From Candidatus Hydrogenedentota bacterium (lineage in GTDB: Bacteria > Hydrogenedentota > Hydrogenedentia > Hydrogenedentales > SLHB01), in NCBI GenBank assembly GCA_045863295.1, contig BTWA01000030.1, positions 9,914-73,913 of the forward strand: a stretch of DNA of 64,000 nucleotides, written 5' to 3'. The position numbers and the translations under genes are program-made. Position 1 is the first letter of the stretch; every line of letters begins with the position of its first letter. The notes beneath the pieces are model-generated. The model was given only the letters and a program-made list of their open reading frames with translations, was not told the origin of the DNA and searched no databases. Shown here piece by piece: positions 24,125-40,544 of this stretch.

Positions 24125-25504
24125 TCAGGGTGTGTGTTTCAGTACACCTGTCCCGTAGGAACCCACCGTGAAGGTAACTTTGCCCCCGGCAGCCACGAAT
24201 GCCTTTCCACTGTCTTTGTCGGTGTACGTTCCGTCGGGCACGCCGCTCAACGTGCAATGGAGTGGGTCCTGCCATTCGTTAACCACGATGAGCCACAATC
24301 CGTCGGCGGCCTGTTTGGGCAGCACGCGCACGCCACGATCGACTGAGCCCCACGTTTCCGCGTAATTGATTTCAAGGGCGATTGCGGCTTCCGGCGCGGA
24401 CAGCACGGGCTGCAGGTCCGCCAATTCACGCAACACTTTCAAAACGTCTGCCCACAGTTGGGAATCCTTTTCGATGAATGCCGTGCCCCAATACAGAATG
24501 CCCCGCGCCCCATTCACAATGGTGTCGTAGGCCATGTAACGGGTCTCGGCCAGCGTTGGGCGGCGCTCGCGCTTTTTCGTGGCTTCGTCAGCGTTCTTGT
24601 CGAGATCAGCCCAACCGAATCCCTGGAGTACCATGAACACCGGCTTGCCGGGCGCGCTCTCCTGCATACGACGCGTGTACGCGCCGACACTGGTGCGGCT
24701 TCGATCGCCCAGATCCGAATGGCCAGTCCCCCAATCCGGCATGGGATAAATGTCGCACCCCACTGCATCAGCCGCCTGCGCAAACATGGCCAGTTGCGGT
24801 ATGGAATTGCGGGGGGCGTGATTCATCCAGATTGGGTGTTTGGGGTCCAACTGCTTGAGCGCGGCGTAGCCCGCCTTCATGCCTTCAGCCATGACCACCA
24901 TTCGATCGGCCGCGGTGTTGATTACATGTGCAGGCTGAGTCTCTGGCAGGCCGAGGGTCTTACTGAGCTCATCGGCCTTGGCTTCTCCCTCGACATACAA
25001 TCCTTCCCGCATGGTGCGTTGCGCGTCGTCAAACTGGGCCTGCATGGCCGTCTTCTGGGCCTCATCGGTAATCGCGGCGATGGCTTCCCGCTGTTGCTTG
25101 GCCTGGTAGTTGAACCGCCACTCCTGCGCGGCGTACCAGACATTCCACAGGGCTTCGTCAGGCACTTCCCAAACCATCATTGCGGGATGAGCCGCAAACT
25201 GGTCCGCCTTGGCCTTCAAGGCCGCCTCGCGGGCTTCCCGGTCAACGCTAAGGTCGAGGTCATACCCGGTATTCACCCAGCCTTTCATGCCGAGTGCCTG
25301 CAGCGCATCAAGTTCTTCCGTGGAATGCACGTACATCAAGTTCACGCCAGCATCGGCGGCTTGCTTTAAAGCCGCTTTTTCCTTTGGATACTCATACAGG
25401 CCAAGCACAAACGTCCGCTGGCCATCAACCACCAACATGCGATCTTCGGCGACTTGCACGTCCGCGGCGATGCCTGCCGCAAGCAGAAAAAGAATTGTTC
25501 CCAT
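24125..25504 (-). CDS. Secreted glycoside-hydrolase-like TIM-barrel protein
   Basis: Short signal peptide; WEVPDEA, LDPKHP, DAVGCDIYP, PVFMVLQGFG, NGARGILYW motifs typical of GH-like proteins. Confidence 0.65.
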   Translation of the reverse strand: MGTILFLLAAGIAADVQVAEDRMLVVDGQRTFVLGLYEYPKEKAALKQAADAGVNLMYVHSTEELDALQALGMKGWVNTGYDLDLSVDREAREAALKAKADQFAAHPAMMVWEVPDEALWNVWYAAQEWRFNYQAKQQREAIAAITDEAQKTAMQAQFDDAQRTMREGLYVEGEAKADELSKTLGLPETQPAHVINTAADRMVVMAEGMKAGYAALKQLDPKHPIWMNHAPRNSIPQLAMFAQAADAVGCDIYPMPDWGTGHSDLGDRSRTSVGAYTRRMQESAPGKPVFMVLQGFGWADLDKNADEATKKRERRPTLAETRYMAYDTIVNGARGILYWGTAFIEKDSQLWADVLKVLRELADLQPVLSAPEAAIALEINYAETWGSVDRGVRVLPKQAADGLWLIVVNEWQDPLHCTLSGVPDGTYTDKDSGKAFVAAGGKVTFTVGSYGTGVLKHTP

Positions 25505-25524: not shown

Positions 25525-26427
25525 CTATTGCGTTACGGCGGCCTGCGCCGGATGCTTCTTTAGAAACGCCAGAATGGCTTCTGCAAACGCGGGATCCGCA
25601 ATGGTCGAGATGTGGTCCCCGCCTTCGATATAGATCGATTCATGCCGGCCCATGACACCGTTCATCCGATCCACCCCGGCACGTAACGGATCGTCAGCCC
25701 CCACGATGGAGAGCAGCGGCACGGAGTTCGCGCGCAATTCCGCCTCGGCTACCACGAGTCCGTCCAAGGCACGCATCACGTGCGCAAGCGCTTCGGTGTC
25801 GTTCGTGAGACTCAATGTGAAGTTGATTTGGCGAAGCACCCACCCCTCGGGGGCTTTGCCCGGCGGCGATATCGCCTCGAAAAGCGGCCCGAAATTGCCC
25901 GTGTAATCCAGCGCATTCGCAATGTCGTACCGTTCGGCCTCGCCACTTTCCGGGTCTTCCCATCCGGCGCCACCGGCTACCGCGGAGATGACGCGATCCG
26001 GATGGAGGGTGACCAGTTTGAGCGTAATGAATGCGCCCATGGAATAGCCGACCACATGTGCCTTGGGAATTCCCAGGTGATCCATCAGGCGAATCACGTC
26101 CTCGCAAAAGGGAAGGCCGTATGCGGATTCCTCGTGAGGCTTCTCGCTCAATCCGTGGCCGCGATTGTCGATGGCGATGACTTTGTATTCCTTCGCCAAC
26201 TTTTGCAGCACGCCCGGCTTGCGCCAATTCAGGTCGGCGTTGGCGGCAAACCCGTGAATCAGGATGAGTGGTTCGCCTTCGCCTTCCACGGTGAAGTGAA
26301 TGCGTATGCCGTCCGAGTCGAAAAACTCGCCGGCAACCCGATCGGTGATGCTGTGATAGAGGTACGCCAGGCCGGCCAGGAAAGCACAAGCGACGAGAAC
26401 GACAACTATGCCGATCTTGCGTTTCAC
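25525..26427 (-). CDS. Alpha/beta fold hydrolase with N-terminal anchor
   Basis: LIHGF, DNRGHGLS, GYSMG nucleophile, GADD, GDHI. GTG start with AAGGAGG RBS, about 25 nt downstream of the rSAM-GNAT gene. Confidence 0.88.
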   Translation of the reverse strand: MKRKIGIVVVLVACAFLAGLAYLYHSITDRVAGEFFDSDGIRIHFTVEGEGEPLILIHGFAANADLNWRKPGVLQKLAKEYKVIAIDNRGHGLSEKPHEESAYGLPFCEDVIRLMDHLGIPKAHVVGYSMGAFITLKLVTLHPDRVISAVAGGAGWEDPESGEAERYDIANALDYTGNFGPLFEAISPPGKAPEGWVLRQINFTLSLTNDTEALAHVMRALDGLVVAEAELRANSVPLLSIVGADDPLRAGVDRMNGVMGRHESIYIEGGDHISTIADPAFAEAILAFLKKHPAQAAVTQ

Positions 26428-26451: not shown

Positions 26452-28380
26452 CTATAAGTCGTCGACGGAAATCCCGTAGACGTGAACATCCTGGTATTCA
26501 TCATGCACGAACAGGGCTTCGCGAAGCGTGCCTTCGCGTTTGAACCCCAGCCCCTCAAGGAACGATTGCAGTCCCTTTTCCGGCGCCGATGCGGGAATGG
26601 TGAGCCTGCGCACGGCCTGCTGCTTGGCGGCTTCATTGAGCAGTGTCCGGAAACCGCGGCGTACGTCTTCCGCGAGATAGTCCTGGTCGTCCCGCATGTA
26701 AATCCAACCCTGGGCGGCGCCGTGAAACCGTTCCGGCCGCATCTTAATCAGGCCGAAGGGTTTGCCATCGCGTTTGACCAGGATCATTTCCTTGTCCATG
26801 CCATGGGGATGGAGCGCATCCATTTCACGGTCGTAGCGGGTGGTGATCATGATGCCGCGCTCGGTATAGAGGAAATAAGCCGCACTGTTCCAGTTCTCCC
26901 ACTCCATCAGCATGTCCGCGTCGGCTTCTTCAATGGGCCTCATGCCCACCGACATGCGGAACGCGGCACGCACAAGCGTGAATAGCGAGGGCTTCTCGGT
27001 CCGCGTAAACAAGTGGTACATGCGCGTGAAATTCACGCCCTCGGCGGACAACAAATTGAAAGCGGACACCGCCGATTCCGCCCACGCCCGCTGTGCGTTG
27101 CACCAGGTCTCGTGCGGCAAACGGAAGGAACCGCTCAACGCCTGGTGCACGGCCGCCGTACCGCCTCCGCAGACGTGGCGCGCCCAGCACCGGCGGCAAA
27201 CACCGGTAGTGACCGATCCGATTTCATCGAACCTCGAACGTGCCTCTTCGTCCAATCTGCCTTCGGCGAGTGATCCCACCTTGAACGCTTCCTGGCCCAA
27301 AAAGCGCCATGAAGGATACAACGCGCCATCGGCATCCACGGCCAGTTCATTGGTGCCGCTGGGATCGTTTCGTTTCAACGGCACGCCGTCGTAAATCCGG
27401 TAAAAGAACCCTGCTATGGGATCGACCCGGAAATAGTGATGTTTCAACAGGCGGTTCGCGTAATATACCGCGGATTCGCTGAGCGCCTTGCGCATGGCTT
27501 CCGGATCCAGCGACGGATCCGCGGCATAGGATCCGTCGAGATCCAATTCAATGTGCGTGAAACCAGCCTTGTCCAATGTCTCGACGACGCCCGCGAAGTT
27601 CGGATGTCCCGGTTGAAGCACGATTCTACCGGTCACGCCTTCGCCGCCGGGCTGCACCGCTTTTGCCAGTTTCGCAAGAGTCCACGGTCCGGGTTGCGCG
27701 AACGATTCGAATGCATCCAGTTGCGATTCGGTCTGTTTTACTTCCAGCACAATCGAGATCGTATGTCCTTCCAACGCGTCACCGGATTTGGCTAACGAGA
27801 GATTGAGTACTCGAATGGAAACCGTCGCGGTTTTTCCGGCGAGGCCCGCGGCTCTGATGGCCTGACGGGACAGGCTAATGATCAAATCCGGGCTCTGCAA
27901 CTGGCCTTCGGCAATCCATTCTAGTTGCAGCAGTTTTTGATCGGCCGCCCGGCCCAGCAAAAGATCTATTGCATCTCGGCCCAGCGTCCTCGCTTGAAAT
28001 GGGGCTTCGGATGTCTTGGCGCCGAACCAACCTTTCTTCTTCGCGGGCGGGTCTTCCACCGTTTCCACGCCGGGAAGGCGAACCGAAAGCTTCTTCAGGC
28101 CCTTTTCGAGTTCGAATTCCTTCTGGAGATCCTCTTTCTTGGCCGGCGGAAGGATGGCACGTGTGGACCGGAGCCACTCGAGTTCGCCGATGACCTCTTC
28201 CAATTCAGTTGTATCGTGTTTTCCGGCAAGTTCTCGCACAATTCGGTTAAGCGGCGTGTGCGGATAATACTCCAGCACATCCCAGGAGATGTCGTCGCAT
28301 TCGAAGCAAAAACAGGTTTCGGGATCGATGGCAAACCGGCGGCCGCCCTGGACAAAACGATGTATGAGCGCTTGCGTCAT
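26452..28380 (-). CDS. RRE + degenerate radical-SAM/SPASM + C-terminal GNAT fusion protein (putative RiPP maturase/scaffold)
   Basis: N-terminus IHRFVQGGRRFAIDPET...DDISWDVL resembles the RRE of ranthipeptide maturases. The core is collinear with rSAM (LGRDAIDLL, LQLEWIAEG) but lacks CxxxCxxC and GGE. SPASM-like LAVDADGALYPSWRF...CRRCWARHVCGGGT...WC. C-terminal GNAT MRPIEEAD...LGFKREGTLREALF. Confidence 0.8.
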   Translation of the reverse strand: MTQALIHRFVQGGRRFAIDPETCFCFECDDISWDVLEYYPHTPLNRIVRELAGKHDTTELEEVIGELEWLRSTRAILPPAKKEDLQKEFELEKGLKKLSVRLPGVETVEDPPAKKKGWFGAKTSEAPFQARTLGRDAIDLLLGRAADQKLLQLEWIAEGQLQSPDLIISLSRQAIRAAGLAGKTATVSIRVLNLSLAKSGDALEGHTISIVLEVKQTESQLDAFESFAQPGPWTLAKLAKAVQPGGEGVTGRIVLQPGHPNFAGVVETLDKAGFTHIELDLDGSYAADPSLDPEAMRKALSESAVYYANRLLKHHYFRVDPIAGFFYRIYDGVPLKRNDPSGTNELAVDADGALYPSWRFLGQEAFKVGSLAEGRLDEEARSRFDEIGSVTTGVCRRCWARHVCGGGTAAVHQALSGSFRLPHETWCNAQRAWAESAVSAFNLLSAEGVNFTRMYHLFTRTEKPSLFTLVRAAFRMSVGMRPIEEADADMLMEWENWNSAAYFLYTERGIMITTRYDREMDALHPHGMDKEMILVKRDGKPFGLIKMRPERFHGAAQGWIYMRDDQDYLAEDVRRGFRTLLNEAAKQQAVRRLTIPASAPEKGLQSFLEGLGFKREGTLREALFVHDEYQDVHVYGISVDDL

Positions 28381-29180
28381 CAGTAGGCCCCCAGCGTGCC
28401 TTTGCTGCGGCTGTGGTTCTCCATCAGCTTAAACAAGGTCAAGCCGATGGCAGTCCAGATGCCGCAGTTAATCATCAGAAAATAAAACGAAGGATGCGTG
28501 AAAATCGCGGTTCCCTCTCCTTCCATGAGCACCAGCTTCAGACAAATGGCCGCGTCGGTAATCGGTGCGACGTGCGCAAGGGCCTGCAACACAATCGGCC
28601 AATTGTACATGTCTTCCGTGATGGTCAGGGCGAGCCCAATAAGAATAAGTCGCAATATGACGGCGATTTCCCCCGTCTGCTTGAAGACCAGCACCAAACC
28701 TCCGCTCATGAATCCGAAACCGATCAGATTCAAATAGGTCAGCACAAGGAGTAGAACCGTCAAGGCGGGGCTCGCATGGATTTGGCTGTCAAAGGTGGCG
28801 GCTACCATGGCGATCATGATGGACCAGGTAACAATGCTCATGAAGGCGGCGACGCATGACCGTGCGAGAAAATTGGTGATGAGTCCATGCGGGCTCATAT
28901 ACATCTGTTCCAGTTCCCCTGAACGCGCCATACCCTGCAATCCGGATGTGAACAGTCCGATAATGCCGAAGGCAAACATGCCGATGACAAGTCCCAGCGC
29001 CTTGTCCGTGATGAACTGGGAATACTGATTCGGATCGACCGTGCCGCTCGACAACGCCATGATGATGCCCACAAGCATGCCGTATCCCATGATCATGCCC
29101 ACCATGGTCTTGAACCAATACCGGCGCATGATGATGAACCCGCGGACCAACTCCGCTTTCATGACCAAAAAGAAACCCAT
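28380..29180 (-). CDS. ABC-2 type exporter permease
   Basis: About 6 TM; ARSGELEQMYMSP; ends with SRSKGTLGAY. Start re-set to the ATG at 29180; stop overlaps the next start. Confidence 0.85.
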   Translation of the reverse strand: MGFFLVMKAELVRGFIIMRRYWFKTMVGMIMGYGMLVGIIMALSSGTVDPNQYSQFITDKALGLVIGMFAFGIIGLFTSGLQGMARSGELEQMYMSPHGLITNFLARSCVAAFMSIVTWSIMIAMVAATFDSQIHASPALTVLLLVLTYLNLIGFGFMSGGLVLVFKQTGEIAVILRLILIGLALTITEDMYNWPIVLQALAHVAPITDAAICLKLVLMEGEGTAIFTHPSFYFLMINCGIWTAIGLTLFKLMENHSRSKGTLGAY

Positions 29181-29229
29181 GTCTGCTCCCATTATTGAAC
29201 GCGCGGGCGGGGCAGCCGCCGCTATCTTG

Positions 29230-30252
29230 TCAAGCCGGTCCGTCCGAGGTAAGCCGCAGGAACACATTTTCCAGCGTCTGTTGCCGCTCGCGAATGGAGC
29301 GTAATTCGACGCGATCGCCGCGTAGCGACTCAATCAGCCGGTACAAGGCCTCCGATCGATCGGAGGGATCGGACGGAACTTGCACGCTCAAGATCGGTCC
29401 ATTTTCACTGGGCAGCGATTCAGCACCATGAATGCCCGGAATCGCGCGAAGGCTATCCAAGTCCGGCATGCGGTCAAGATGCAGTTCGTACGCCTGATCG
29501 GAAAAGACGTCCAGCAACTCCTCCGTCGGCTTGCACGCGATCAATTTGCCATTTTCTATGATCCCGATGCGATCGCAGAGTTCCTGAGCGACGCCCATGT
29601 CGTGCGTGGTGACCACTACACTCTTTCCTTGGGTCCGGGTCATCTCGATGATCTTGTCTTTGATGTTCCGGCTGCTTTGCACGTCCAAACCTGTGGTCGG
29701 CTCGTCCAGGAGGAGTACTTCGGGATCCGTGATCAGCGCAATGCATATGGCCAGCTTCTGCTTCTGGCCCCGGGACAGCTTCCGCACCTCCGTGTTCATC
29801 TTGTCTTTCAGTCCGATGAACTCGAGCAGTTGTTCGGACCGCGCTCGCAATACGCGACCGCGCACGTCCCGCAAATTACCGAAATAGGCGAGGTTCTCCA
29901 GTGGCGTCAACGGCCAGATGCACGTTCGCGTGCCTTCCAAGACAACGCCCAGCTTACGGAGAACCTTGAGCCGGTTCGACTCCACGTAGAGGCCGCCGAC
30001 ATACACCTCGCCGCTGCATGGCTTCACCAAGCCCGATATCATCTTCACGGTCGTCGTTTTGCCCGCGCCGTTGCGGCCCAGCAAACCGAAAATTTCGCCC
30101 CTGCGCACGCCGAATGACACGTCGTTTACCGCATGGACCGTTTTCCTGCGGTACCATTTGCGCACACCGGAATCCTCGTCACGGGTGAGCACGTGGCGGG
30201 TATGGAACACTTTGTTGATACCACGCAATTCGACGGTGAATTCGGCGCTCAT
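29230..30252 (-). CDS. ABC exporter ATP-binding subunit
   Basis: GRNGAGKTT, LSRGQKQK, LLLDEPTTGLD, TTHDM. Confidence 0.93.
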   Translation of the reverse strand: MSAEFTVELRGINKVFHTRHVLTRDEDSGVRKWYRRKTVHAVNDVSFGVRRGEIFGLLGRNGAGKTTTVKMISGLVKPCSGEVYVGGLYVESNRLKVLRKLGVVLEGTRTCIWPLTPLENLAYFGNLRDVRGRVLRARSEQLLEFIGLKDKMNTEVRKLSRGQKQKLAICIALITDPEVLLLDEPTTGLDVQSSRNIKDKIIEMTRTQGKSVVVTTHDMGVAQELCDRIGIIENGKLIACKPTEELLDVFSDQAYELHLDRMPDLDSLRAIPGIHGAESLPSENGPILSVQVPSDPSDRSEALYRLIESLRGDRVELRSIRERQQTLENVFLRLTSDGPA

Positions 30253-31013
30253 TTTGCTTGCTGCCTCGAGGGCATGTACACCTTGTCCATTTCCCGGGCG
30301 GCCAGTTCTGGATCGCCCAACTCGTCGACTTTCATCAGATACTCCAAATAGGCGATCTCGATGTCGCGCATGGCGTGAATGACCATGACAAGGACAAAGC
30401 TGTTGGTCACATGATACAAAACGCCCAGCAAGAGCGAGAATCCCACGAATTCCAGTGACACCATGAAGCTGTTCTCGAAAAAGTGCTTGTGCACGACCAC
30501 AAAAAGTGCCGCGACCACTACAATACCCGTGAACGCCGCCGCGTTTGCGGACATGAACTGTTCGAGAAACACAACCGAAAACTTCTGCGCGGAAACGCGC
30601 CAGATGAGTTCTTCGGCCACGGCCACCCCAAGGAAACGCAACAACACGATTGGACTGTCAACGGTAAAATTCCACAAATCGCCGAAGTCGAAGAAGTGGC
30701 TCCAGGCATCCTTGATCGAATTGTGTGTGATCAAAAGCGACAGGCCGAACACCATGTGTCCAGCCAACAATCCCAATCCGATATAGAGTGGCGAGACCAG
30801 TTGCCGCGAGAATACGTCGAGACACAGGGCAAAGTAGACGGCCAGCCAAAAAATGGGCGCTTGTATGAAAACATGCACTCTACGTATGCCACCGGTGGGT
30901 TGTTCCCCTTCCACGTACCGGTTACTGATCAGGGAAAAGACAACGTGCCCTCCGAGCAAGGCGAAAAAAGCGCCAACAGTCCAGCCCGGAATGGAGACCG
31001 CCTCGACGATCAT
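30249..31013 (-). CDS. CPBP (CAAX/Rce1/Abi) family intramembrane metalloprotease
   Basis: Multi-TM; AEELIWR (EExxxR), FVVVH (FxxxH), IHAMRD (HxxxN/D). Confidence 0.85.
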   Translation of the reverse strand: MIVEAVSIPGWTVGAFFALLGGHVVFSLISNRYVEGEQPTGGIRRVHVFIQAPIFWLAVYFALCLDVFSRQLVSPLYIGLGLLAGHMVFGLSLLITHNSIKDAWSHFFDFGDLWNFTVDSPIVLLRFLGVAVAEELIWRVSAQKFSVVFLEQFMSANAAAFTGIVVVAALFVVVHKHFFENSFMVSLEFVGFSLLLGVLYHVTNSFVLVMVIHAMRDIEIAYLEYLMKVDELGDPELAAREMDKVYMPSRQQAK

Positions 31014-31642
31014 TCCGCCGCCTCCGGCTGCACCCTTCGGTCTTCGATGTCGGCAATCATCGTCTTCAGATCGATCCCTTTCAGCTTGCGATGGAAACTC
31101 TCACGCAAAACTTCAAATTCGGATCGAAGCAGACCATATCCGTACATCTCGAACATTTGTCCATCCCGGGCCACGTGATCGGGTAACACCAATTCGCGTT
31201 TTGCCCCGGAGAGTTCGAAGTTTCGCCACGAACGGCTATTGAAGCCGTAAATGTAGATGTTGATGCGATGCATGTTCAGAATGTGGAAACAGTATTCAAG
31301 AACACGGTAAAACGAGATCGTTGCCAGCATACCGTTCCGCTTGGACTCGATAATGTACGAGTCGATATTGCAAGAACGGTTGCGCCAACTGATATTGACT
31401 ACACTGAAGAGTCCAAACGGCCCGTACTTGTTGGAATCCGCCACGAAATAGATCGTAGGGGGCATGGAATGCGGCGCGGAGCGGCCAAGCATGCCGACGA
31501 TTTGTTCGCGCACTTGGCGCGGCGAGCGCGCGGGATCCCCGTACAGAAAGCGTTGAAATGCGGGGTCCTGCATCCACGAGACCACCGTTTCCAAATCGTC
31601 GCGGTCCGCGCGACGTATAAACACACTAGACTTAAGCGCCAT
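31010..31642 (-). CDS. GNAT family N-acyltransferase (RimJ/RimL-like)
   Basis: IRRADRDDL, ISWRNRSC, YCFHILNMHRI, FNSRS, GAKRELVL, YGLLRSEF. Confidence 0.85.
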   Translation of the reverse strand: MALKSSVFIRRADRDDLETVVSWMQDPAFQRFLYGDPARSPRQVREQIVGMLGRSAPHSMPPTIYFVADSNKYGPFGLFSVVNISWRNRSCNIDSYIIESKRNGMLATISFYRVLEYCFHILNMHRINIYIYGFNSRSWRNFELSGAKRELVLPDHVARDGQMFEMYGYGLLRSEFEVLRESFHRKLKGIDLKTMIADIEDRRVQPEAAE

Positions 31643-31644
31643 GA

Positions 31645-32190
31645 TCAGGCCTCCGCCGCGGCGGGTGCGGCAAGGCGATCGTATTCCGGCCGCAACATGC
31701 CGAATCCGAGCAAATCCGCGGCCTTGCCGTTTTGCAGCAGATGTCCCCGGTACGTCACTTCTCGCTTAGCACCCATTCTAGCGAGCGCGGAAAGAGCGGT
31801 TGTGTCGGAGGCGGCCACACGCGTGGACACTCGATGAAGATTGAGTTCGTCGAAGCAATACCGGAGTAGACCCAGCCAACCATCAAACACAATATCTTCC
31901 GTGCGATGCGCGGGAATCACGTAGAGACTGGAGGCGCATTGACGATTGCGCCACTGCATTTCGTAGATGGCGGCGAGGCCCACCGGCTGGTCTTTGTCGT
32001 CAGTCAGCATAAAAAATCCGATGCCGGCATTCTGCGAATTCAGGGCACCACCCAGCAGTGCTATCGCCTGCGCACCGTGCTGACGCCAGGACCGCCGGCT
32101 GTCACCAAAGACAAACTCGCGGAACACGGGGTCCTCGGCCCATTCGAGGACATAGTCGAGGTCGGCCCGCTCAAGACGTCGCAAGCGCAC
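31645..32190 (-). CDS. GNAT family N-acyltransferase (RimJ/RimL-like)
   Basis: LRRLERADL, MQWRNRQC, YCFDELNLHRV, GAKREVT, FGMLRPEY; a paralog of the downstream GNAT. Confidence 0.85.
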   Translation of the reverse strand: MRLRRLERADLDYVLEWAEDPVFREFVFGDSRRSWRQHGAQAIALLGGALNSQNAGIGFFMLTDDKDQPVGLAAIYEMQWRNRQCASSLYVIPAHRTEDIVFDGWLGLLRYCFDELNLHRVSTRVAASDTTALSALARMGAKREVTYRGHLLQNGKAADLLGFGMLRPEYDRLAAPAAAEA

Positions 32191-32743
32191 TGTATCGTTC
32201 CTTGTAGGCTTCCAAATGTTGGCAGCGGGATCGGGGCAGCGAATGCGATTCGAGATCGTAGTAGCGGCCGTGAGTATAGATCATGTCCCGTTGAATACCA
32301 TCGCACACGAAACCGTGACGCACGAGAAACGCGCGGTACAATTCCTCTGTGGTCAGGCAACTGGTTTGAATCTTGTTGAGTTTCTTCTCGACAAACGTGC
32401 CGTATGCGATGAAACCAAATACTTCGTCGGCGAGGGGCTGGCCGTAATCGGACTCATCGGCCATGGCGAGCATCATTTCCGCGAACGCGGATTCCATCTT
32501 GGCGCTACGCATCACGAAACAACCCCGAATATCCCCTTGCAGATTCTCAACGACAAAGAAGACGCCGGAAAGAAAGTCTTTCCGGCCAAGCATTTCGCGC
32601 AATTCGTCCAATGTGGGGATGTAGATTTCCCGCGAAGGACCGATCAGGAATGAACGAGGCGATGACATATCGTACAACTGCCACAGGGCGTACGCGTCAT
32701 CGGGTTCGCTCGAACGGATTATGCCGTGTTCCAATGCAATCAT
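32171..32743 (-). CDS. GNAT family N-acyltransferase (RimJ/RimL-like)
   Basis: IRSSEPDDA, FVEKKLNKI, HGFVCDGIQRDMIYTHGRYYD. Confidence 0.8.
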   Translation of the reverse strand: MIALEHGIIRSSEPDDAYALWQLYDMSSPRSFLIGPSREIYIPTLDELREMLGRKDFLSGVFFVVENLQGDIRGCFVMRSAKMESAFAEMMLAMADESDYGQPLADEVFGFIAYGTFVEKKLNKIQTSCLTTEELYRAFLVRHGFVCDGIQRDMIYTHGRYYDLESHSLPRSRCQHLEAYKERYSALATS

Positions 32744-32919: not shown

Positions 32920-32949
32920 AAAAAAAAGCGGGGTTGAAGCCAACCCCGC
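32920..32949 (-). terminator. Rho-independent terminator after the peptide genes
   Basis: Perfect 9-bp stem GCGGGGTTG/CAACCCCGC (32928-32949) with a 4-nt loop, followed on the minus strand by T8 (A8 at 32920-32927 on +). Confidence 0.85.
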
Positions 32950-32981: not shown

Positions 32982-33194
32982 CTAAAAGAACAAACGCTCT
33001 TCGTCGTCTCCACCCGTGTCACCGCCGCCGTCTCCCCCGTCATCCGGGGGATCGACGATCCCGCCGCCACCAATGATAAAGTTCTTCTTGCCGAAAACAA
33101 CGTCGTAGTAGCCATTCAGGACGGCATTTACAAAATCGATGGCGGCCGTGGCTTCCAGGATCTTCGTTTTCGTTAGTTTGCGCACGTGCTTCAT
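32982..33194 (-). CDS. Putative RiPP precursor peptide A (70 aa)
   Basis: MKHVRKLTKTKILEA-TAAIDFVNAVLNGYYDVVFGKKNFII-GGGG plus acidic tail; GGAG RBS; leader shared with the two neighbours. Confidence 0.75.
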   Translation of the reverse strand: MKHVRKLTKTKILEATAAIDFVNAVLNGYYDVVFGKKNFIIGGGGIVDPPDDGGDGGGDTGGDDEERLFF

Positions 33195-33243
33195 GGACGA
33201 TCTCCAGACCGACCCGGCCGCGCCGGATCCGTCAGCACCCAGC

Positions 33244-33381
33244 CTATCCCTTCAGGCCACCGATGGAGTTCTTCGTGGAAAACAGGAAGTTCAACCATGC
33301 GTTCCAGAACGTATTCAAAAAGTCATCATACGAAGCGGCCTGACGTATCCGCGCTGCGGAAATGTTTCGCACATGTCGCAT
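33244..33381 (-). CDS. Putative RiPP precursor peptide B (45 aa, not in ORF track)
   Basis: Hand translation: MRHVRNISAARIRQAASYDDFLNTFWNAWLNFLFSTKNSIGGLKG*. GGAGGAG RBS 5 nt before the ATG; aligns without gaps to precursor A. Confidence 0.8.
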   Translation of the reverse strand: MRHVRNISAARIRQAASYDDFLNTFWNAWLNFLFSTKNSIGGLKG

Positions 33382-33479
33382 GAACACTCCTCCATGTAGT
33401 TCGTGAAATGGCGCTGACTACGGCAGCGTCATCACGGGTATCAGCGGTAATTCATAACCCCAACACGGCCGTATCGGCG

Positions 33480-33701
33480 TCAGGTATTCTCTTCCGGATT
33501 CTTCTCTTCGCTATACGCCGTGAGCGCGGCCAAGAACCCCTGCAAGCCAGTCACCGAGGCAGTGAAGATGGCGCTAAACGCAGTGACGAATACGGTTACA
33601 ACGTCAAAACCCAGCGTCAATATGGAGATTAGTACCTCCAGATTGGTCTGATCGGCCTCGGCACGTAACGGTTGCTTGGAAATCATGGTCAGGTGTTTCA
33701 A
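33480..33701 (-). CDS. Putative RiPP precursor peptide C (73 aa)
   Basis: TTG start with GGGAGA RBS; MKHLTMISKQPLRAEA leader, long hydrophobic Thr/Ser-rich core, EEKNPEENT end. Confidence 0.72.
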   Translation of the reverse strand: MKHLTMISKQPLRAEADQTNLEVLISILTLGFDVVTVFVTAFSAIFTASVTGLQGFLAALTAYSEEKNPEENT

Positions 33702-33910: not shown

Positions 33911-33939
33911 AGTCTAGCACCAAACCATCCCGTTATCAA
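33911..33939 (-). promoter_or_regulatory. Sigma70-type promoter upstream of the peptide cluster
   Basis: Minus strand reads TTGATA, 17-nt spacer ending TGC, TAGACT; same TGC-extended -10 style as the rpoB, rpsL and tRNA promoters. Confidence 0.6.
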
Positions 33940-34112
33940 TGACATCAAATGCTTAACCGGGAATGGGTTAGCCCCCCGAAGAACTCCCGTACTATAGGGT
34001 CCCGCCTTATCCTACCGCAACGGACGTAAGCCGTTACGGTCTCGAAACGGGTACTACTGACGAGAAACACTTTACATCAACCCGGCAACGCGGTGCACAC
34101 AAAGGAAGTCCC

Positions 34113-35618
34113 TTAACGGACACCGGCAACTTCCACACTGTCGTACCCAAAGGATTGGGCGCTCGGAAGGTCCGAATGGCCCATCAGCCGAATATCAATG
34201 GCACGTGCGGCCTCACGGCCTTCGTGAATGGCCCAGACCACCAGCGACTGTCCGCGGCGCGCGTCGCCTGCCGCAAAGACATTGGGCTTGCTTGTGCTGT
34301 ACTGGCCGTATTCGGCTTTCACATTTCCACGTGGATCTAATTCCAGCCCAAGTTGTTTGGGCAAAACATGTTCGGGATGAACAAAGCCCATGGCCAAGAG
34401 CACCAGTTCACACTCAATCTCGAACTCGCTGCCAGCCACTTCCTTCATTTGCATCCGGCCCGAATCGTCTTTCACCCATTCGACACGGACCGCCTGGATA
34501 GCGCGCAATTTCCCGTTGCCGTCTCCCAGGAACTCCTTAGTAAGCACGCTGAAATCGCGGTCGCCCCCTTCTTCGTGGCTCGAAGACGTACGATAAATAA
34601 CGGGCCACAGGGGCCAAGGGGTTGACGGATTCTCGCCCTCGGGCGGACGAGGCAACAACTCCAACGACCACACGTGCTTCGCCCCCTGCCGCAGACTGGT
34701 GCCGAGGCAGTCGGAACCCGTGTCGCCGCCACCGAGAATTACCACGGTTTTGCCATTGGCCAAAATCGCGTTTTCTACGACTTCCTTTCCCGAAACCCTA
34801 CGGTTTTGCTGGGTCAGAAAATCCATGGCGAAGTGTACGCCGTCCAGTTCACGTCCGGGGATCGGGAGATCCCGGGGTTGGGTCGACCCTGTGGTCAACA
34901 GAATGGCGTCAAATTCTTTCTCCAACTCAGCGGCGGTGACGTCTTTGCCCACTTCCACGCCGCACCGGAAAATGACGCCTTCAGCGGCCATCTGCTTCAG
35001 CCGCCGGCGCACGACGTCCTTGTTCAGCTTGAAATCCGGAATACCGTACATCAGCAAGCCACCAGCCTCATCCGCGCGCTCGAAAAGGGTGACTGTATGG
35101 CCAGCCCGGTTCAGTTGTTGCGCGGCGGCCAACCCAGCCGGACCGGACCCAATTACCGCGACTTTCTTTCCGGTCCGGACTTCCGGCAACTCGGGATTGA
35201 TCCAGCCTTCCGCGAAGCCGCGGTCGGCGATGGAACGTTCGTTCAGTTTGATGGTGACGGGCGGATCCGTGATTCCCAGCACGCACGATGCCTCGCACGG
35301 CGCTGGGCACACTCGACCAGTAAACTCCGGGAAGTTATTGGTGGAAAGCAACGTATCCAAGGCGCGTTTCCAATCCAAATCCTTCACACCGTCGTTGAAA
35401 TCGGGAATGATGTTCCCCAGGGGGCAGCCGGACATGCAAAACGGGATGCCGCAATTCATGCAGCGGTACCCCTGCTCCTTCATTTTCGAATCATCGAAAT
35501 CCTGGAGGAACTCGTCCCAATGCTTTGTGCGCTCTTCTACAGGCCGGTACGACGGCGTTTCCCGCTTGTATACCATGAACCCTTTTTCTTTCGAGGGTCC
35601 ATTGTTATTTGACGGCAT
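34113..35618 (-). CDS. gltD: Glutamate synthase small subunit
   Basis: RCMNCGIPFCMSGCPLGNIIP, NNFPEFTGRVCPAPCE, GSGPAGLAAA, GGGDTGSDC, RRGQSLVVWAI. AGGAGG RBS before the ATG at 35618. Confidence 0.95.
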   Translation of the reverse strand: MPSNNNGPSKEKGFMVYKRETPSYRPVEERTKHWDEFLQDFDDSKMKEQGYRCMNCGIPFCMSGCPLGNIIPDFNDGVKDLDWKRALDTLLSTNNFPEFTGRVCPAPCEASCVLGITDPPVTIKLNERSIADRGFAEGWINPELPEVRTGKKVAVIGSGPAGLAAAQQLNRAGHTVTLFERADEAGGLLMYGIPDFKLNKDVVRRRLKQMAAEGVIFRCGVEVGKDVTAAELEKEFDAILLTTGSTQPRDLPIPGRELDGVHFAMDFLTQQNRRVSGKEVVENAILANGKTVVILGGGDTGSDCLGTSLRQGAKHVWSLELLPRPPEGENPSTPWPLWPVIYRTSSSHEEGGDRDFSVLTKEFLGDGNGKLRAIQAVRVEWVKDDSGRMQMKEVAGSEFEIECELVLLAMGFVHPEHVLPKQLGLELDPRGNVKAEYGQYSTSKPNVFAAGDARRGQSLVVWAIHEGREAARAIDIRLMGHSDLPSAQSFGYDSVEVAGVR

Positions 35619-38600
35619 GCTGAACCTCCTGAGCGACGGCCTTGCCATTGTCTCCACCGGCTTGCCGTTCCATTTCACGCAACACCCGCGCGTAATCGCG
35701 CGGCATCACCCGGACAAAGTGCTGAGACTCAGAAGTCCAGTTGTCGAGGATCCGCTTCGCCACGGTGCTGCCGGTGTACTGAACATGCCGATCCAGCATG
35801 TACTTCAAATCGTTCAGACTCTTTTCGTTCATCGGCTTCAAGTCAACAGACTCTTGATTGCACAGAATGGGAAAGGAACCGTTTGGGTCGTACACGAACG
35901 CAATGCCACCGCTCATGCCTGCCGCGAAGTTCCGCCCGGTCGGCCCAAGAATGGCCGCACGGCCGCCAGTCATGTACTCGCACCCATGATCGCCCACGCC
36001 TTCGACAACCGCCCAGGCGCCGCTGTTGCGCACGCAGAAGCGCTCGCCGCCAATGCCGCGAAAATACGCTTCTCCGCCCGTGGCGCCGTATAGGGCCACA
36101 TTGCCTACCACGATGTTCTGCTCGGGTGTCATGGGGCACTCGGCCGGCGGTGTCACAATAATCTTGCCGCCGGAAAGTCCCTTGCCGCAGTAGTCGTTGG
36201 CTTCGCCGGTCACGTTCAAAGTCACGCCTTTGATCGAAAACGCGCCAAAGCTTTGGCCCGCCTGACCTGTGCAATCGATCCACACGGTGTCTTCAGGCAA
36301 AGTGCCGGTTTCGAGACCGACCTTGTGAACGCGCGTCAATTCACTGGAAAGCATCGTTCCGACGGTACGGTTGATGTTCTTTATTTCCGTCGAAAACCGT
36401 ACCTTTTCAACTTGGTCGAAAGATGCAGCTGGTTTGAGCGCCGCGCTTGCACGCACAAGAAGGTCGTTGTCCAACGCCTTCTCCAGTCCGTGATCCTGGG
36501 TCTGGCTGTGATAAAGCGTCTCCCCTTTCCACGGCGTCTCCACATGAAGCAGGCGGGTAAGGTCGAGCTTCTTTGCCTTCCAGTGATCCGGCAGGGGGTC
36601 GTATTCGAGCCGGTCGGTGCGGCCGATCATTTCATTAACGGTGCGGAAACCGAGTTCCGCCATGATGGCCCGCACTTCCTCGGCAATGAAGAAACACAAA
36701 TTCACAACGTACTCGGGCTTGCCCGCGAATTTCTTGCGCAGTTCCGCATCTTGTGTCGCAATGCCGACCGGGCAGGTGTTCAAATGACACTTGCGCATCA
36801 TGATACACCCCGTCGCAATGAGCGGCAATGTCGCCATGCCCACTTCGTCGGCGCCCAGCAGGAACGCAATGGCCACATCGCGGCCGGTCTTAATCTGGCC
36901 GTCCGTTTGTACGCGAATTCGGCTTCGCAAATTGTTGGACACCAGAACCTGGTGGGTCTCGGAGAGGCCCAACTCCCACGGCAGACCCGCATGCTTGATC
37001 GAACTCAGGGGCGACGCGCCGGTTCCACCATTGTCGCCGCTGACAAGTACCAAATCGGACTTGCCCTTGGCCACGCCCGCGGCGACCGTACCCACACCCA
37101 CTTCCGACACGAGCTTCACCGAGATGTTCGCGTACTTGTTCGCGTTCTTCAGATCATGAATGAGTTGCGCCAAGTCTTCGATCGAATAGATGTCGTGATG
37201 CGGCGGAGGCGAAATCAATTCCACGCCGGGCGTGGAATAGCGAATGCGCGCAATCTCCGGGAACACTTTGTGCCCCGGCAATTCGCCGCCTTCACCGGGC
37301 TTCGCACCCTGCGCCATTTTGATTTGGAGTTCGTCCGCATTGACAAGGTATTCGTTGGTCACGCCAAAGCGGCCGGAGGCCACTTGCTTAATCGCGCTGC
37401 GACGCAGATCGCCATTGCCATCCGCCACGAATCGTTTTGGATCTTCGCCGCCTTCGCCGGTGTTGCTTCGGCCGCCGATACGGTTCATCGCAATCGCCAG
37501 CGTTTCGTGCGCTTCCTTGCTGATCGAACCAAACGACATGGCCCCCGTGCAGAACCGCTTCACGATTTCTTTCGCGGATTCCACTTCCTCGATAGGAACC
37601 GGGGTGCCTTTCTTGAACTTCAACAACGAACGCAGCGCGGCCAACGACCGGTTGCGATCATTGATGAGGGCGCTGAACTCCCGGAATTTCTCCTGGCTAT
37701 TCGCGCGCACGGCATGTTGCACCCGCGACACGGTGTCGGGGTTGTACATGTGAAATTCGCCGCGCCGGCGCCAGCGGTATACACCGCCCGGATCCAACTC
37801 GCGGGGCCGTGCATGCGCCTTCGGATACGCAATGGAATGACGCATGAGCGTCTCGCGGCACACGTCCTCCATCTCGATTCCGCCAATGCGCGAAGCTGTA
37901 CCCGCAAAGCATCGGTCAATCAGGATTGGGCCGAGGCCCAGGGCTTCGAAGATTTGCGCGCTTCGGTAGCTGTGCTGCGTCGAGATGCCGATCTTTGACA
38001 TCGTCTTCAGCATGCCCGCTTCAACCGCGTGAATGAAATTCGCGACGGCTTGCCCCGGTTCCTTTTCCACCAGGATTTCCCGTTGGAGTTGGTCCTCGAT
38101 CGTGGCGAAGGCGAGGTATGGATTCACCGCGCCCGCGCCGTATCCCGTCAAGAGGCAGAAGTGCATAACTTCGCGGGGCTCGCCGGATTCCACCACGATA
38201 CCGCAATGGCTGCGAAGCCCTTTGCGCACCAGGTGATGGTGCACACCGCCCGTCGCGAGCAAGCTCGGAATCGCGGCATTCTTTTCACCCACACCGCGAT
38301 CGGACAGCAGAAGGAGCGTGTACCCCGCTTGGGTAGCGGCTTCCGCCTCATTGCAAATGCGATCGAGGTGTCTCTCAAGCGCGCCAAAGCCCTCTTCCGC
38401 AGGAAACAGCGTCGAAATGACTTTCGTCTTCAGACCTGGCTTGTCCAAGTGCTTGATATAGTCGAGTTGCTCGTTCGTGATGATGGGCGACTTCAAATGA
38501 AGCTGTTGGCAGTCTTCCGGAGTCGCATCGAGCAGATTCTTCTCGCGGCCGATATCGGTTTCCAGCGACATGACGATTTCTTCGCGGATCGGATCGATCG

Positions 38601-40215
38601 GCGGGTTCGTCACTTGCGCAAACAACTGCTTGAAGTAATTGAACAGCAATTGCGGGCGATTCGAGAGCACGGCCAGCGGCGCGTCATTTCCCATCGATCC
38701 GAGCGGCTGCTTGCCTTTCTCGGCCATGGGATTGATGATGATCTCGATGTCTTCCAACGTGTAGCCGAATACCTGCTGTTGTTCGAGCAACGGCGCTTCG
38801 GCAACGGCGGCCTTGCCATTCGACGGCGGACACGACGCCGGCAGCACATGGCGGTGCAAATCCAGCCACGCACGGTAGGGTTTGGCCTTGCCGTACTTTT
38901 CCTTCAATTCCTCATCATTGACGATCCGCTTTTCTTCGGTGTCGATGAGGAACATGCGGCCCGGTTCAAGCCGGCCCTTCTTGATAATTTTTTCCTGCGG
39001 CACATTAAGCACGCCGACTTCGGAGGCCATCACCACAAAGTTGTCGTTCGTGACCCAATAGCGCGACGGCCGCAGGCCATTGCGATCGAGCAACGCGCCG
39101 ATCTGCACACCGTTGGTAAACGCAACCGACGCGGGCCCGTCCCACGGTTCCATTTTGCAGGCGTGATATTCATAGAACGCCTTGCGCCAATCCGGCATTT
39201 GGGGATTGCCGCTCCACGGCTCAGGCACCAGCATCATCATGGCATGGGCTGCGTCACGGCCGCCCAGCATGAGCAACTCAAAGGTAGAGTCGAATATCGC
39301 GGAGTCGCTGTCGCCTTCCTTGTGAATAGGCGCCAGCTTTGCGATATCGGCGCCAAACAGGCTGCTGGCGAGATCCGTTTCGCGCGACCGCATCATATTC
39401 ATATTTCCGCGCAACGTATTGATTTCGCCGTTGTGCGCGAGATAGCGGAACGGGTGGGCCAACGGCCACGACGGAAACGTATTCGTGCTGTACCGCTGGT
39501 GCACCAGCGCCAGGGCGCTTTCCGTGTCCGGATTCTTCAGATCCTGATAGTAGCTGCCCATCTGCGCGGCGAGCATCAGTCCCTTGTAAACTACCGTGCG
39601 CGAGGACATGCTCGGTGAATAAAACTGCGCGCGCGAGGGAATATCGGAGGTATAAATCTTTTTCTCGGCAACCTTACGGATGACATACAGCTTGCGTTCG
39701 AACGCATCCTGATCCAGGCCTGCTGCCCGCTGGATGAAGACCTGCTGCATGACCGGCTCATTCTGGCGTGCAAGCGATCCAATCTTGCTCGAATCGCGCG
39801 GCACGTCGCGCCAGCCCAATACGGTCTGTCCCTCGGCTTTTACAGCTTCCTCGACAATGGCAATACACCGTTTGCGATCCGCGTCGTTGTGCGGCAGGAA
39901 AATCATACCCGCCGCATACGCGCCCTGATCCGGCAACGTGAATTTCAGCCGTTCCGCCTCCTTCTGGAAGAGTTTATGCGGCGTCTGAATCAGAATGCCG
40001 GCGCCATCGCCCGTTTCCGGGTCGCAACCGCATGCGCCGCGGTGTTCCAGATTCTCCAGCACGTGGATGGCCTGGGCCAGAATGTCGTGGGTAACGCGGC
40101 CGTCAATGTTCGCCACAAACCCGACGCCACACGCGTCGTGCTCGGTAAACGGCTCGTACAGCCCGTCTGTGGATGGTTTCCGTGGATACAAGGTTTTACG
40201 CCCACCTTTCTTCAT
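35605..40215 (-). CDS. gltB: Glutamate synthase large subunit
   Basis: EHDACGVGF, HQRYSTNT, AHNGEINT, GAMSFGSIS, AQGAKPGEGG, CHLNTCPVGIATQ. Start uncertain (40215 chosen). Confidence 0.96.
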   Translation of the reverse strand: MKKGGRKTLYPRKPSTDGLYEPFTEHDACGVGFVANIDGRVTHDILAQAIHVLENLEHRGACGCDPETGDGAGILIQTPHKLFQKEAERLKFTLPDQGAYAAGMIFLPHNDADRKRCIAIVEEAVKAEGQTVLGWRDVPRDSSKIGSLARQNEPVMQQVFIQRAAGLDQDAFERKLYVIRKVAEKKIYTSDIPSRAQFYSPSMSSRTVVYKGLMLAAQMGSYYQDLKNPDTESALALVHQRYSTNTFPSWPLAHPFRYLAHNGEINTLRGNMNMMRSRETDLASSLFGADIAKLAPIHKEGDSDSAIFDSTFELLMLGGRDAAHAMMMLVPEPWSGNPQMPDWRKAFYEYHACKMEPWDGPASVAFTNGVQIGALLDRNGLRPSRYWVTNDNFVVMASEVGVLNVPQEKIIKKGRLEPGRMFLIDTEEKRIVNDEELKEKYGKAKPYRAWLDLHRHVLPASCPPSNGKAAVAEAPLLEQQQVFGYTLEDIEIIINPMAEKGKQPLGSMGNDAPLAVLSNRPQLLFNYFKQLFAQVTNPPIDPIREEIVMSLETDIGREKNLLDATPEDCQQLHLKSPIITNEQLDYIKHLDKPGLKTKVISTLFPAEEGFGALERHLDRICNEAEAATQAGYTLLLLSDRGVGEKNAAIPSLLATGGVHHHLVRKGLRSHCGIVVESGEPREVMHFCLLTGYGAGAVNPYLAFATIEDQLQREILVEKEPGQAVANFIHAVEAGMLKTMSKIGISTQHSYRSAQIFEALGLGPILIDRCFAGTASRIGGIEMEDVCRETLMRHSIAYPKAHARPRELDPGGVYRWRRRGEFHMYNPDTVSRVQHAVRANSQEKFREFSALINDRNRSLAALRSLLKFKKGTPVPIEEVESAKEIVKRFCTGAMSFGSISKEAHETLAIAMNRIGGRSNTGEGGEDPKRFVADGNGDLRRSAIKQVASGRFGVTNEYLVNADELQIKMAQGAKPGEGGELPGHKVFPEIARIRYSTPGVELISPPPHHDIYSIEDLAQLIHDLKNANKYANISVKLVSEVGVGTVAAGVAKGKSDLVLVSGDNGGTGASPLSSIKHAGLPWELGLSETHQVLVSNNLRSRIRVQTDGQIKTGRDVAIAFLLGADEVGMATLPLIATGCIMMRKCHLNTCPVGIATQDAELRKKFAGKPEYVVNLCFFIAEEVRAIMAELGFRTVNEMIGRTDRLEYDPLPDHWKAKKLDLTRLLHVETPWKGETLYHSQTQDHGLEKALDNDLLVRASAALKPAASFDQVEKVRFSTEIKNINRTVGTMLSSELTRVHKVGLETGTLPEDTVWIDCTGQAGQSFGAFSIKGVTLNVTGEANDYCGKGLSGGKIIVTPPAECPMTPEQNIVVGNVALYGATGGEAYFRGIGGERFCVRNSGAWAVVEGVGDHGCEYMTGGRAAILGPTGRNFAAGMSGGIAFVYDPNGSFPILCNQESVDLKPMNEKSLNDLKYMLDRHVQYTGSTVAKRILDNWTSESQHFVRVMPRDYARVLREMERQAGGDNGKAVAQEVQHAVK

Positions 40216-40544
40216 CAAGAGAATTAGGCAGTTAGAGTTGGCCTGCTCGTCCTGTGTAACCTGGACTTGGTACATGTTGCCCAGCACAGCGAACCAGGAC
40301 CCTGCCGTCAGGCAGCGCATCGCTACCGAAAATATATACCCGAAACGTTCGTGTTTCCGGCGAAACCCTTGCGAGATCCGGACCGGCGAGCAGGAGCTAC
40401 AACTCCTTGCTAATACTCATCTTAAGTCATGTCGCACGAACCAATTCACGCCGTAGCCACGCGTCGCAGCGGCATGACCTCCCTTCGCGATCAGCTCACA
40501 CGCATCGCGAAAAAAGCGGGCTAAACAGAAGAATCCGTCGGAAG

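Follow-up and report, generated by a model that had tools for sequence, protein, structure and literature searches.

SCIFF peptides, the substrates of CteB-type thioether synthases, begin with the residues MKH. The solved CteB-CteA complex, as described in PMC6231123, shows how the CteA leader is held, namely by strand addition to the recognition domain of the enzyme, and the near-universality of SCIFF in Clostridia is taken in PMC8326336 as an argument against an antimicrobial role. A different chemistry is represented by the selidamides (kamptornamide, phaeornamide and the nostolysamides), in which, as reported in PMC8784127, GNATs acylate lysine or ornithine side chains of precursor peptides. 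A locus with features of both lies in a 64,000-nucleotide stretch (hereafter the window) of contig BTWA01000030.1 from a Candidatus Hydrogenedentota bacterium, where three small genes, pepA, pepB and pepC, are encoded together with a CteB-like maturase fused to a GNAT domain. The three are real, conserved, precursor-like genes, and it is somewhat better than an even bet that their products are enzyme-modified peptides of ribosomal origin, forming a family described neither in curated family libraries nor in the papers searched. The peptide genes are:

pepC, 33480..33701, minus strand: 73 aa from a TTG start; MKH leader, hydrophobic helix of about 29 residues and a YSEEKNPEENT tail.
pepB, 33244..33381, minus strand: 45 aa from an ATG after GGAGG; Trp-rich class with leader, A-x-A, a DFxN..W..W helix and K-N.
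pepA, 32982..33194, minus strand: 70 aa; divergent Trp-rich copy (DFVN..., FGKKNF) with a Gly/Asp-rich tail.

All three open reading frames (ORFs) lie on the minus strand exactly where the original prediction, made from the letters of the window, had placed them. Its leader consensus fits pepA, pepB and pepC alike, its Lys-Asn contexts (FGKKNF, FSTKNS and YSEEKNP) are found as it gave them, and the cores are indeed free of cysteine, the count being zero in each peptide. Ribosome-binding sites (GGGAGA, GGAGG or GGAGA) precede the starts of pepC, pepB and pepA by 5 to 8 nt, and pepB has an additional in-frame GTG at 33387. The hydrophobic stretch of pepC comprises residues 20 to 48 (19-residue hydropathy window), while pepB and pepA match the profile of the Trp-rich class at E values of 4.4e-18 and 2.2e-15, respectively, in a search of their own genome. 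Neither the three peptides nor their relatives have a match in Pfam or NCBIfam, and the plus-strand ORFs that overlap them have none in Pfam.

The family becomes visible in related loci, of which 8 came from a scan of species genomes and 68 more from a metagenome scan. Small same-strand ORFs upstream of the operon were collected if they started with M[KR]H[VLIMF], a pattern derived from the window leader, and were counted in the 36 loci with at least 4.5 kb of upstream sequence. Between one and six leader-bearing peptides are encoded in 29 of these 36 loci, giving a total of 87 including those of the window (78 distinct), counts that stem from related genomes and hence are not independent. Leader positions 1 to 4 are conserved by construction, being the search criterion; positions 7 and 8 were not part of the pattern, and the former is [IVL] in 74 and the latter Ser or Thr in all 78 of the distinct peptides. 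A leader hidden Markov model (HMM) applied to 32,642 ORF N-termini (850 kb, both strands) placed every match of at least 13 bits in the expected upstream region, and also turned up variants such as MNHL.... Absence of cysteine is the rule of the family, not an absolute one: 70 of the distinct peptides have none, five have one and three have two. The family thus has the build of precursors, with leader positions 1 to 8 conserved in the 78 peptides and cores of at least three kinds. Several members end in tails of low complexity (Gly/Glu, Gly/Asp or poly-Gly), at L024 (3093-3206), L075 (3329-3448), L023 (3952-4131) and in pepA itself (window 32982-33080).

The Trp-rich amphipathic class, to which pepB and pepA belong, consists of the leader, a near-invariant A-x-A, the core DFxNxxWxAWxDFxxx, a KKNE element and two to four final residues. 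The A-x-A is compatible with the original prediction that the leader may be cut off after [EQ]A. Its profile retrieves 110 database proteins, including the two of the window, all of them unnamed or annotated as 'hypothetical protein'. Members of the hydrophobic class carry a helix of 10 to 30 residues, a Lys directly after it and an acidic or polar tail; pepC is a member of a long hydrophobic subfamily ending in KNP, which is invariant in 5/5 aligned sequences. A third, small class ends in FFKDLFGG. The proposal that a Lys-Asn motif is conserved therefore holds for part of the family: KN is near-invariant in the Trp-rich class (104/110, with KKN in 97/110) and in the pepC subfamily, but it is present in only 33 of the 78 distinct peptides, of which 61 have K[NED] and all 78 have some Lys past residue 16. 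What generalizes, as judged from these alignments, is a K-[N/D/E] close to the C-terminus whose basic residue is specifically Lys, KN being general only in the Trp-rich class.

The preference for Lys over Arg at this position is pronounced, which bears out the earlier view that the peptides share a conserved Lys. In the last 12 residues of 174 pooled peptides the K:R ratio is 296:34, compared with 265:228 in the leaders, 186:288 in the middle parts and 185:232 in five large proteins of the window; these ratios describe a family of related sequences and not independent trials. K[NDE] occurs 148 times in the pooled set and R[NDE] 3 times. The bias extends beyond the Trp-rich class (K:R 63:10), where 51 of 53 peptides have a Lys within the last 14 residues. 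The last Lys mostly lies 4 to 9 residues before the C-terminus, most often 5, with tails ranging from 0 to 36 residues. Since the Lys does not appear replaceable by Arg, its amine would have a chemical role, for example as an acyl acceptor, and not serve as a charge alone.

Enzymes that might act on such a residue are encoded directly downstream. The order in the window is peptides, GNAT1, GNAT2 (an optional member), GNAT3, CPBP protease, ABC ATPase, permease and fusion protein:

GNAT1, 32171..32743, minus strand: 190 aa, Acetyltransf_4; kept in 35/36 loci with room upstream.
GNAT2, 31645..32190, minus strand: 181 aa, Acetyltransf_3, an extra paralogue; among 36 loci present only in L001, L012 and L037.
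GNAT3, 31010..31642, minus strand: 210 aa, Acetyltransf_3; present in 36/36 loci.
CPBP/Rce1-like intramembrane protease, 30249..31013, minus strand: 254 aa with EELIWR, FVVVH and HAMRD; syntenic.
ABC transporter ATPase (DrrA-like), 29230..30252, minus strand: 340 aa.
Membrane protein, probably the ABC permease, 28380..29333, minus strand: 317 aa with seven hydrophobic segments.
Fusion protein, 26452..28380, minus strand: 642 aa; recognition domain like that of CteB, radical-SAM barrel lacking CX3CX2C, SPASM domain with the second auxiliary-cluster Cys set only, and C-terminal RimL-like GNAT.

The order from GNAT1 to the fusion is kept in related loci wherever the contig allows, and L033 is without GNAT1. 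The three motifs of the CPBP protein correspond to EExxxR, FxxxH and HxxxD, which we take to be catalytic in that family. The loci that bear GNAT2 (L001, L012, L037 and the window) are those whose peptides include a long hydrophobic one of the pepC type with KNP at its end, and two loci with shorter KNP-ending peptides have no GNAT2. This co-occurrence, seen in four loci that are kin, is a hint that every GNAT has a peptide class of its own.

The fusion protein carries the evolutionary link to SCIFF maturation. Its profile aligns with CteB (PDB 5wgg) at an E value of 3.8e-39 over residues 4 to 435, covering the recognition domain, the barrel and SPASM. In the pairwise alignment, however, the CX3CX2C motif of CteB lies opposite cysteine-free residues of the window protein, and the motif is found in 0/42 further full-length metagenome fusions. 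Two SPASM cysteine positions read YPS and CGGGT in the window fusion, whereas CxxCx5C and a later Cys are retained (C395, C398, C404 and C427, invariant in 48 fusion sequences) and presumably form the second auxiliary cluster. With CX3CX2C and the first auxiliary-cluster cysteines lost, the protein cannot form thioethers by radical chemistry. The suggestion that loss of cysteine in the substrates parallels loss of the radical-SAM motif in the enzyme is thus borne out on both sides, by the 70 cysteine-free peptides among 78 and by the 42 fusions lacking the motif. The fusion scores 71 bits against TIGR03974 (the ScfB-type maturase), below the cut-off of 425. A GNAT whose closest solved relatives are of the RimL type (1s7k, 1z9u) makes up its last 160 residues, and NCBIfam returns weak matches of the RimJ/RimL type. 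A separate feature of the recognition domain is CFCFEC (C-x-C-x-x-C; fusion residues 23 to 28, window 28297-28314), which lies in the strand modeled against the leader and is invariant, although in the metagenome set partly by construction, since it served as a search pattern. CteB has no Cys at this position, and CFCFEC could be a metal site.

Structural modeling suggests how the leader and the fusion meet. The whole fusion (alignment of 48) folded with pepB (alignment of 28) gives an interface score (ipSAE) of 0.61 (three runs: 0.61, 0.61 and 0.65), against 0.00 for the best of three controls. The mark applied to this score is reached by 116/157 solved complexes and 2/215 mismatched pairs and is approximate here, where our own alignments were used. 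The runs share at least 48% of their contacts. In the model, peptide residues 1 to 11 run antiparallel along fusion residues 24 to 29, the CFCFEC strand, and contact residues 23-29, 59, 62-63, 66-67 and 70, with His3 of the peptide placed amid D29, E59, E62, V63 and E66. Because C23-D29, E62, V63, E66 and L70 are invariant in the 48 fusions, the modeled interface brings conserved residues of the two partners together. The first eleven residues therefore probably dock on the fusion recognition domain, and the original prediction that the leader is the element bound by the RiPP recognition element (RiPP: a peptide made by the ribosome and modified after translation), through pairing of beta-strands, agrees with the model.

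The system is nearly ubiquitous in its phylum. The fusion was found in 123/135 Hydrogenedentota genomes (83/86 of those of high quality) and the Trp-rich peptide in 109/135 (77/86), mostly once per genome; contigs that carry both have them on the same strand with a few kb between them, as in genomes G080, G007 and G034. A tblastn search with the cluster proteins found a single such enzyme cluster in the window's own genome. In its distribution it is a near-core system comparable to SCIFF in Clostridia, and not a sporadic bacteriocin. Because it is near-universal in the phylum, its product is more likely to have a housekeeping role, in the envelope or in signaling, than to act as an antibiotic. 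One record, L005, is labeled uncultured Nitrospirales, yet the coordinates of its fusion and peptide equal those of G076, which is counted in Hydrogenedentota; the two placements disagree.

Compared with SCIFF, the locus shares the homology of the fusion to CteB, a leader modeled against the recognition-domain strand that holds it in the CteB-CteA complex described in PMC6231123, and near-universality in one large taxon (PMC8326336 for SCIFF). It differs in its cores, SCIFF having about six cysteines in 45 residues, the window peptides none and their family two at most; in its maturase, which is without CX3CX2C and the first auxiliary-cluster Cys; and in its further enzymes, a fused GNAT plus two or three more GNATs, a CPBP protease and an ABC exporter. 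Neither the three peptides of the window nor 14 of their relatives match the SCIFF model TIGR03973 (cut-off 50 bits) at E up to 10. When the whole genome is searched, the window peptides are not listed and the best E value, 0.26, lies elsewhere. Against PDB sequences, the peptide profile yields a chance match only (E 1) and no CteA chain, and a search of the protein atlas likewise returned nothing usable. The peptides thus fall outside SCIFF, with no match to the model, no Cys-rich core and no active radical-SAM partner. They do resemble RiPP precursors in being encoded beside an enzyme with a leader-recognition domain, on which residues 1 to 11 are placed in the structure model.

The likeness to selidamides lies in the GNAT maturases within the precursor operon and in the candidate acceptor; in selidamides this is a Lys or Orn near the core ends, modified in a leader-dependent manner (according to PMC8784127 and PMC13647313). 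The selidamide systems described in PMC8784127 differ in their long NHLP or Nif11 leaders, LanM synthetases and, often, arginases. At the present locus there is no arginase, none of the nine genes downstream of the peptides encodes a LanM, and the peptides have no Pfam or NCBIfam match to an NHLP or Nif11-type leader; instead, one gene joins a GNAT to a dead radical-SAM scaffold, and the Lys proposed as acceptor is close to the C-terminus. Acylation has been demonstrated for selidamides, whereas here it is suggested by four GNAT domains and a Lys-specific site. CaaX processing offers a further parallel, in that a CPBP protease with EExxxR, FxxxH and HxxxD is encoded beside peptides with a candidate lipidation residue near the C-terminus. 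That residue is Lys and not Cys, the tail is not fixed at three residues, and any lipidation or cleavage is proposed here by analogy. Double-glycine bacteriocins are a poorer comparison, as the leader has no GG junction, the permease is encoded apart from the DrrA-like ABC ATPase, and no peptidase domain was found. Among the papers searched, none was found on a SPASM-GNAT fusion without the radical-SAM motif or on Hydrogenedentota peptides; subscription journals and supplements were outside that search.

Taken together, these features incline us, by a modest measure, to regard pepA, pepB and pepC as precursors whose leader docks on a dead radical-SAM scaffold, whose conserved Lys is acylated by GNATs, and which are processed and exported by the CPBP protein and the ABC transporter. 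The genes, their conservation, the operon, the ancestry and lost motifs of the enzyme and the Lys bias are observations, to which the structure model adds the docking; we infer acyl transfer, its site, trimming and export. The leader would comprise residues 1 to 11, M-[KR]-H-[IVL]-x-x-[IVL]-[ST]-x-x-x, and would extend the fusion's recognition domain by a beta-strand. The fusion descends from a SCIFF-type, CteB-like thioether synthase, has lost its radical-SAM cluster, and would now be the scaffold on which peptides dock for the GNAT domain fused to it and probably also for the separate GNATs. These would place an acyl group on the peptide, the likeliest acceptor being the Lys of K-[N/D/E] after the helix. 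The CPBP intramembrane protease may then trim the peptide, and the ABC transporter may export it.

Several results weigh against this scheme. In the docking model the partner pLDDT is only 43 to 46, below 50, so that the fold of the peptide itself is uncertain, and leader residues 1 to 11 alone are confidently placed, leaving out the core and the Lys. The pass may moreover reflect memory of a solved complex of the same kind, in which case the model shows likeness and not binding. None of the four GNAT domains displays a clear textbook acetyl-CoA loop at the aligned place; hence the acyl donor need not be acetyl-CoA, and one or more of the domains are possibly inactive. The nearest solved relatives of GNAT3 are diamine/spermidine acetyltransferases, which act on small amines, and that of the fused GNAT is RimL, which acts on alpha-amines; none acts on a peptide Lys. 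Two of the 53 peptides outside the Trp-rich class lack a Lys in the last 14 residues. Seven of the 36 loci (L033, L050, L055, L057, L058, L063 and L067) retain the enzyme genes in order without a leader ORF in the 4 kb upstream, as judged by inspection of small ORFs and the leader HMM on both strands; that space is filled by other genes, and the peptides of these loci may be elsewhere in their genomes. Among two RNA and two DNA runs compared with the window, the RNA contigs cover only 32300-32506, in GNAT1, and 33957-34199, upstream of pepC, with none on the peptides, although contigs cannot show absence and the result counts neither for nor against expression.

Other accounts of the same genes differ in how much of the scheme they keep. 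Least is kept if pepA, pepB and pepC are chance open frames, as their shortness and their want of a Pfam or NCBIfam family might suggest, but the probability of this is practically nil: the peptides are conserved, with the Trp-rich protein found across the phylum at E values down to 1e-23, their place and strand in the operon are fixed and each has its ribosome-binding site. The peptides could instead be genuine and remain unmodified, being exported or inserted into membranes in the manner of bacteriocins or membrane-active peptides, with a leader for export or chaperoning, a CPBP protein for immunity and GNATs that act on other substrates. The cores do look like helices, either amphipathic and rich in Trp or hydrophobic, loci differ in how many peptides of the hydrophobic class they have and in the sequences of these, and CPBP proteins and ABC-2 transporters occur alongside unmodified bacteriocins. 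We nonetheless consider this unlikely, as the distribution (fusion in 123 and Trp-rich peptide in 109 of 135 genomes, mostly in single copy) is unlike that of sporadic bacteriocins, neither a double-glycine leader nor a C39 peptidase domain was seen, and a fusion of recognition domain and GNAT with invariant leader-contact residues would be left without a role.

A greater, though still minor, share of the probability goes to an account with the same precursors and docking in which the target of GNAT acylation is the alpha-amino group freed by removal of the leader at A-x-A, and the Lys serves otherwise, as a protease site, in membrane anchoring or in target binding. It draws on the closest solved relatives of the fused GNAT, the RimL-type N-terminal acetyltransferases 1s7k and 1z9u, on the weak RimJ/RimL-type matches, and on the A-x-A itself, which abuts the Trp-rich core and travels with it when an insert parts the core from the leader. 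The residue after A-x-A is variable (F, K, I, W or Y), however; the strongest signature of the core is Lys over Arg near the C-terminus; and three or four GNAT domains would be superfluous for capping one N-terminus. Acylation of the Lys itself leaves room for a refinement that we regard as rather doubtful: the CPBP protease would cut just after the acyl-Lys and remove the polar tail as Rce1 removes -aaX, leaving a helix that ends in acyl-Lys. The CPBP/Rce1-like protease, its three catalytic motifs complete, is encoded in every operon, the last Lys sits mostly 4 to 9 and most often 5 residues from the C-terminus, the Lys of the hydrophobic class directly follows the helix and precedes an acidic tail, and such a cut would strip the long Gly/Asp tail of pepA. 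Yet this is analogy only, the tails range from 0 to 36 residues, and the protease could equally cut off the leader. The broadest version of the idea, which we likewise consider improbable, is a phylum-wide descendant of SCIFF in which radical thioether chemistry gave way to acyl transfer: the dead radical-SAM enzyme would do no more than dock leaders for GNATs, these would lipidate a Lys close to the C-terminus of helical peptides, and CPBP would remove the tail after the acyl-Lys, a bacterial, Lys-based counterpart of eukaryotic CaaX processing that would yield housekeeping lipopeptides for the envelope or for signaling.

Further features of the window surround the peptide genes:

Terminator-like hairpin, 32928..32949, minus strand: 9 bp stem with 7 GC, then T8; 33 nt past the pepA stop and before GNAT1.
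Promoter-like site, 33911..33939, minus strand: TTGATA-17-TAGACT upstream of pepC; weak, with 1 site against 0.8 expected in shuffles.

A hairpin and T-run after the last peptide recur in 18/26 distinct related loci. Directly upstream of the peptides are the genes for the two subunits of glutamate synthase, both in the window (34113-40320) and in L003 (1-5107), whose fusion is only 49% identical to that of the window. At the other end, an alpha/beta hydrolase (25525-26427) and a 459-aa protein with no family match (24125-25504) were set outside the system, as they are not conserved in the eight genome loci. Assignment as a defence system was also dismissed, PADLOC having matched only the generic ABC ATPase.

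Elsewhere in the same genome, far from the operon and among housekeeping genes, the leader HMM picked out small ORFs of the form MKH/MTH...[ST]:

Contig C13, 54721-54912, minus strand: leader-like ORF that ends in KNP and aligns with pepC.
Contig C27, 48166-48285, plus strand: leader-like ORF.
Contig C74, 925-1077, plus strand: leader-like ORF.
Contig C74, 1280-1447, plus strand: leader-like ORF.
Contig C10, 94684-94836, minus strand: leader-like ORF.
Contig C25, 5918-6034, minus strand: leader-like ORF.
Contig C9, 86820-87080, plus strand: leader-like ORF with a pepA-like Gly/Asp tail.

The C9 ORF was considered as a relative of pepA and is unconfirmed as such, giving no BLASTP alignment with it. 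These distant ORFs may be orphan precursors served in trans.

If the proposed scheme is true, it would add a class of peptides whose substrate-docking module is a radical-SAM enzyme that has lost its catalysis and been turned to other chemistry, and a clear case of a peptide pathway that changes its reaction while retaining leader recognition. Should the acyl groups be fatty ones and their attachment by the GNATs leader-controlled, these enzymes would be potential tools for gene-encoded lipopeptides, as is being attempted with selidamide enzymes (PMC13647313). SCIFF peptides are as widespread in Clostridia, and a cysteine-free sister system gives another way into the still open question of what they do. 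For the Hydrogenedentota, a phylum known almost only from metagenomes, the near-universal presence of the system means that these peptides probably matter to basic biology.

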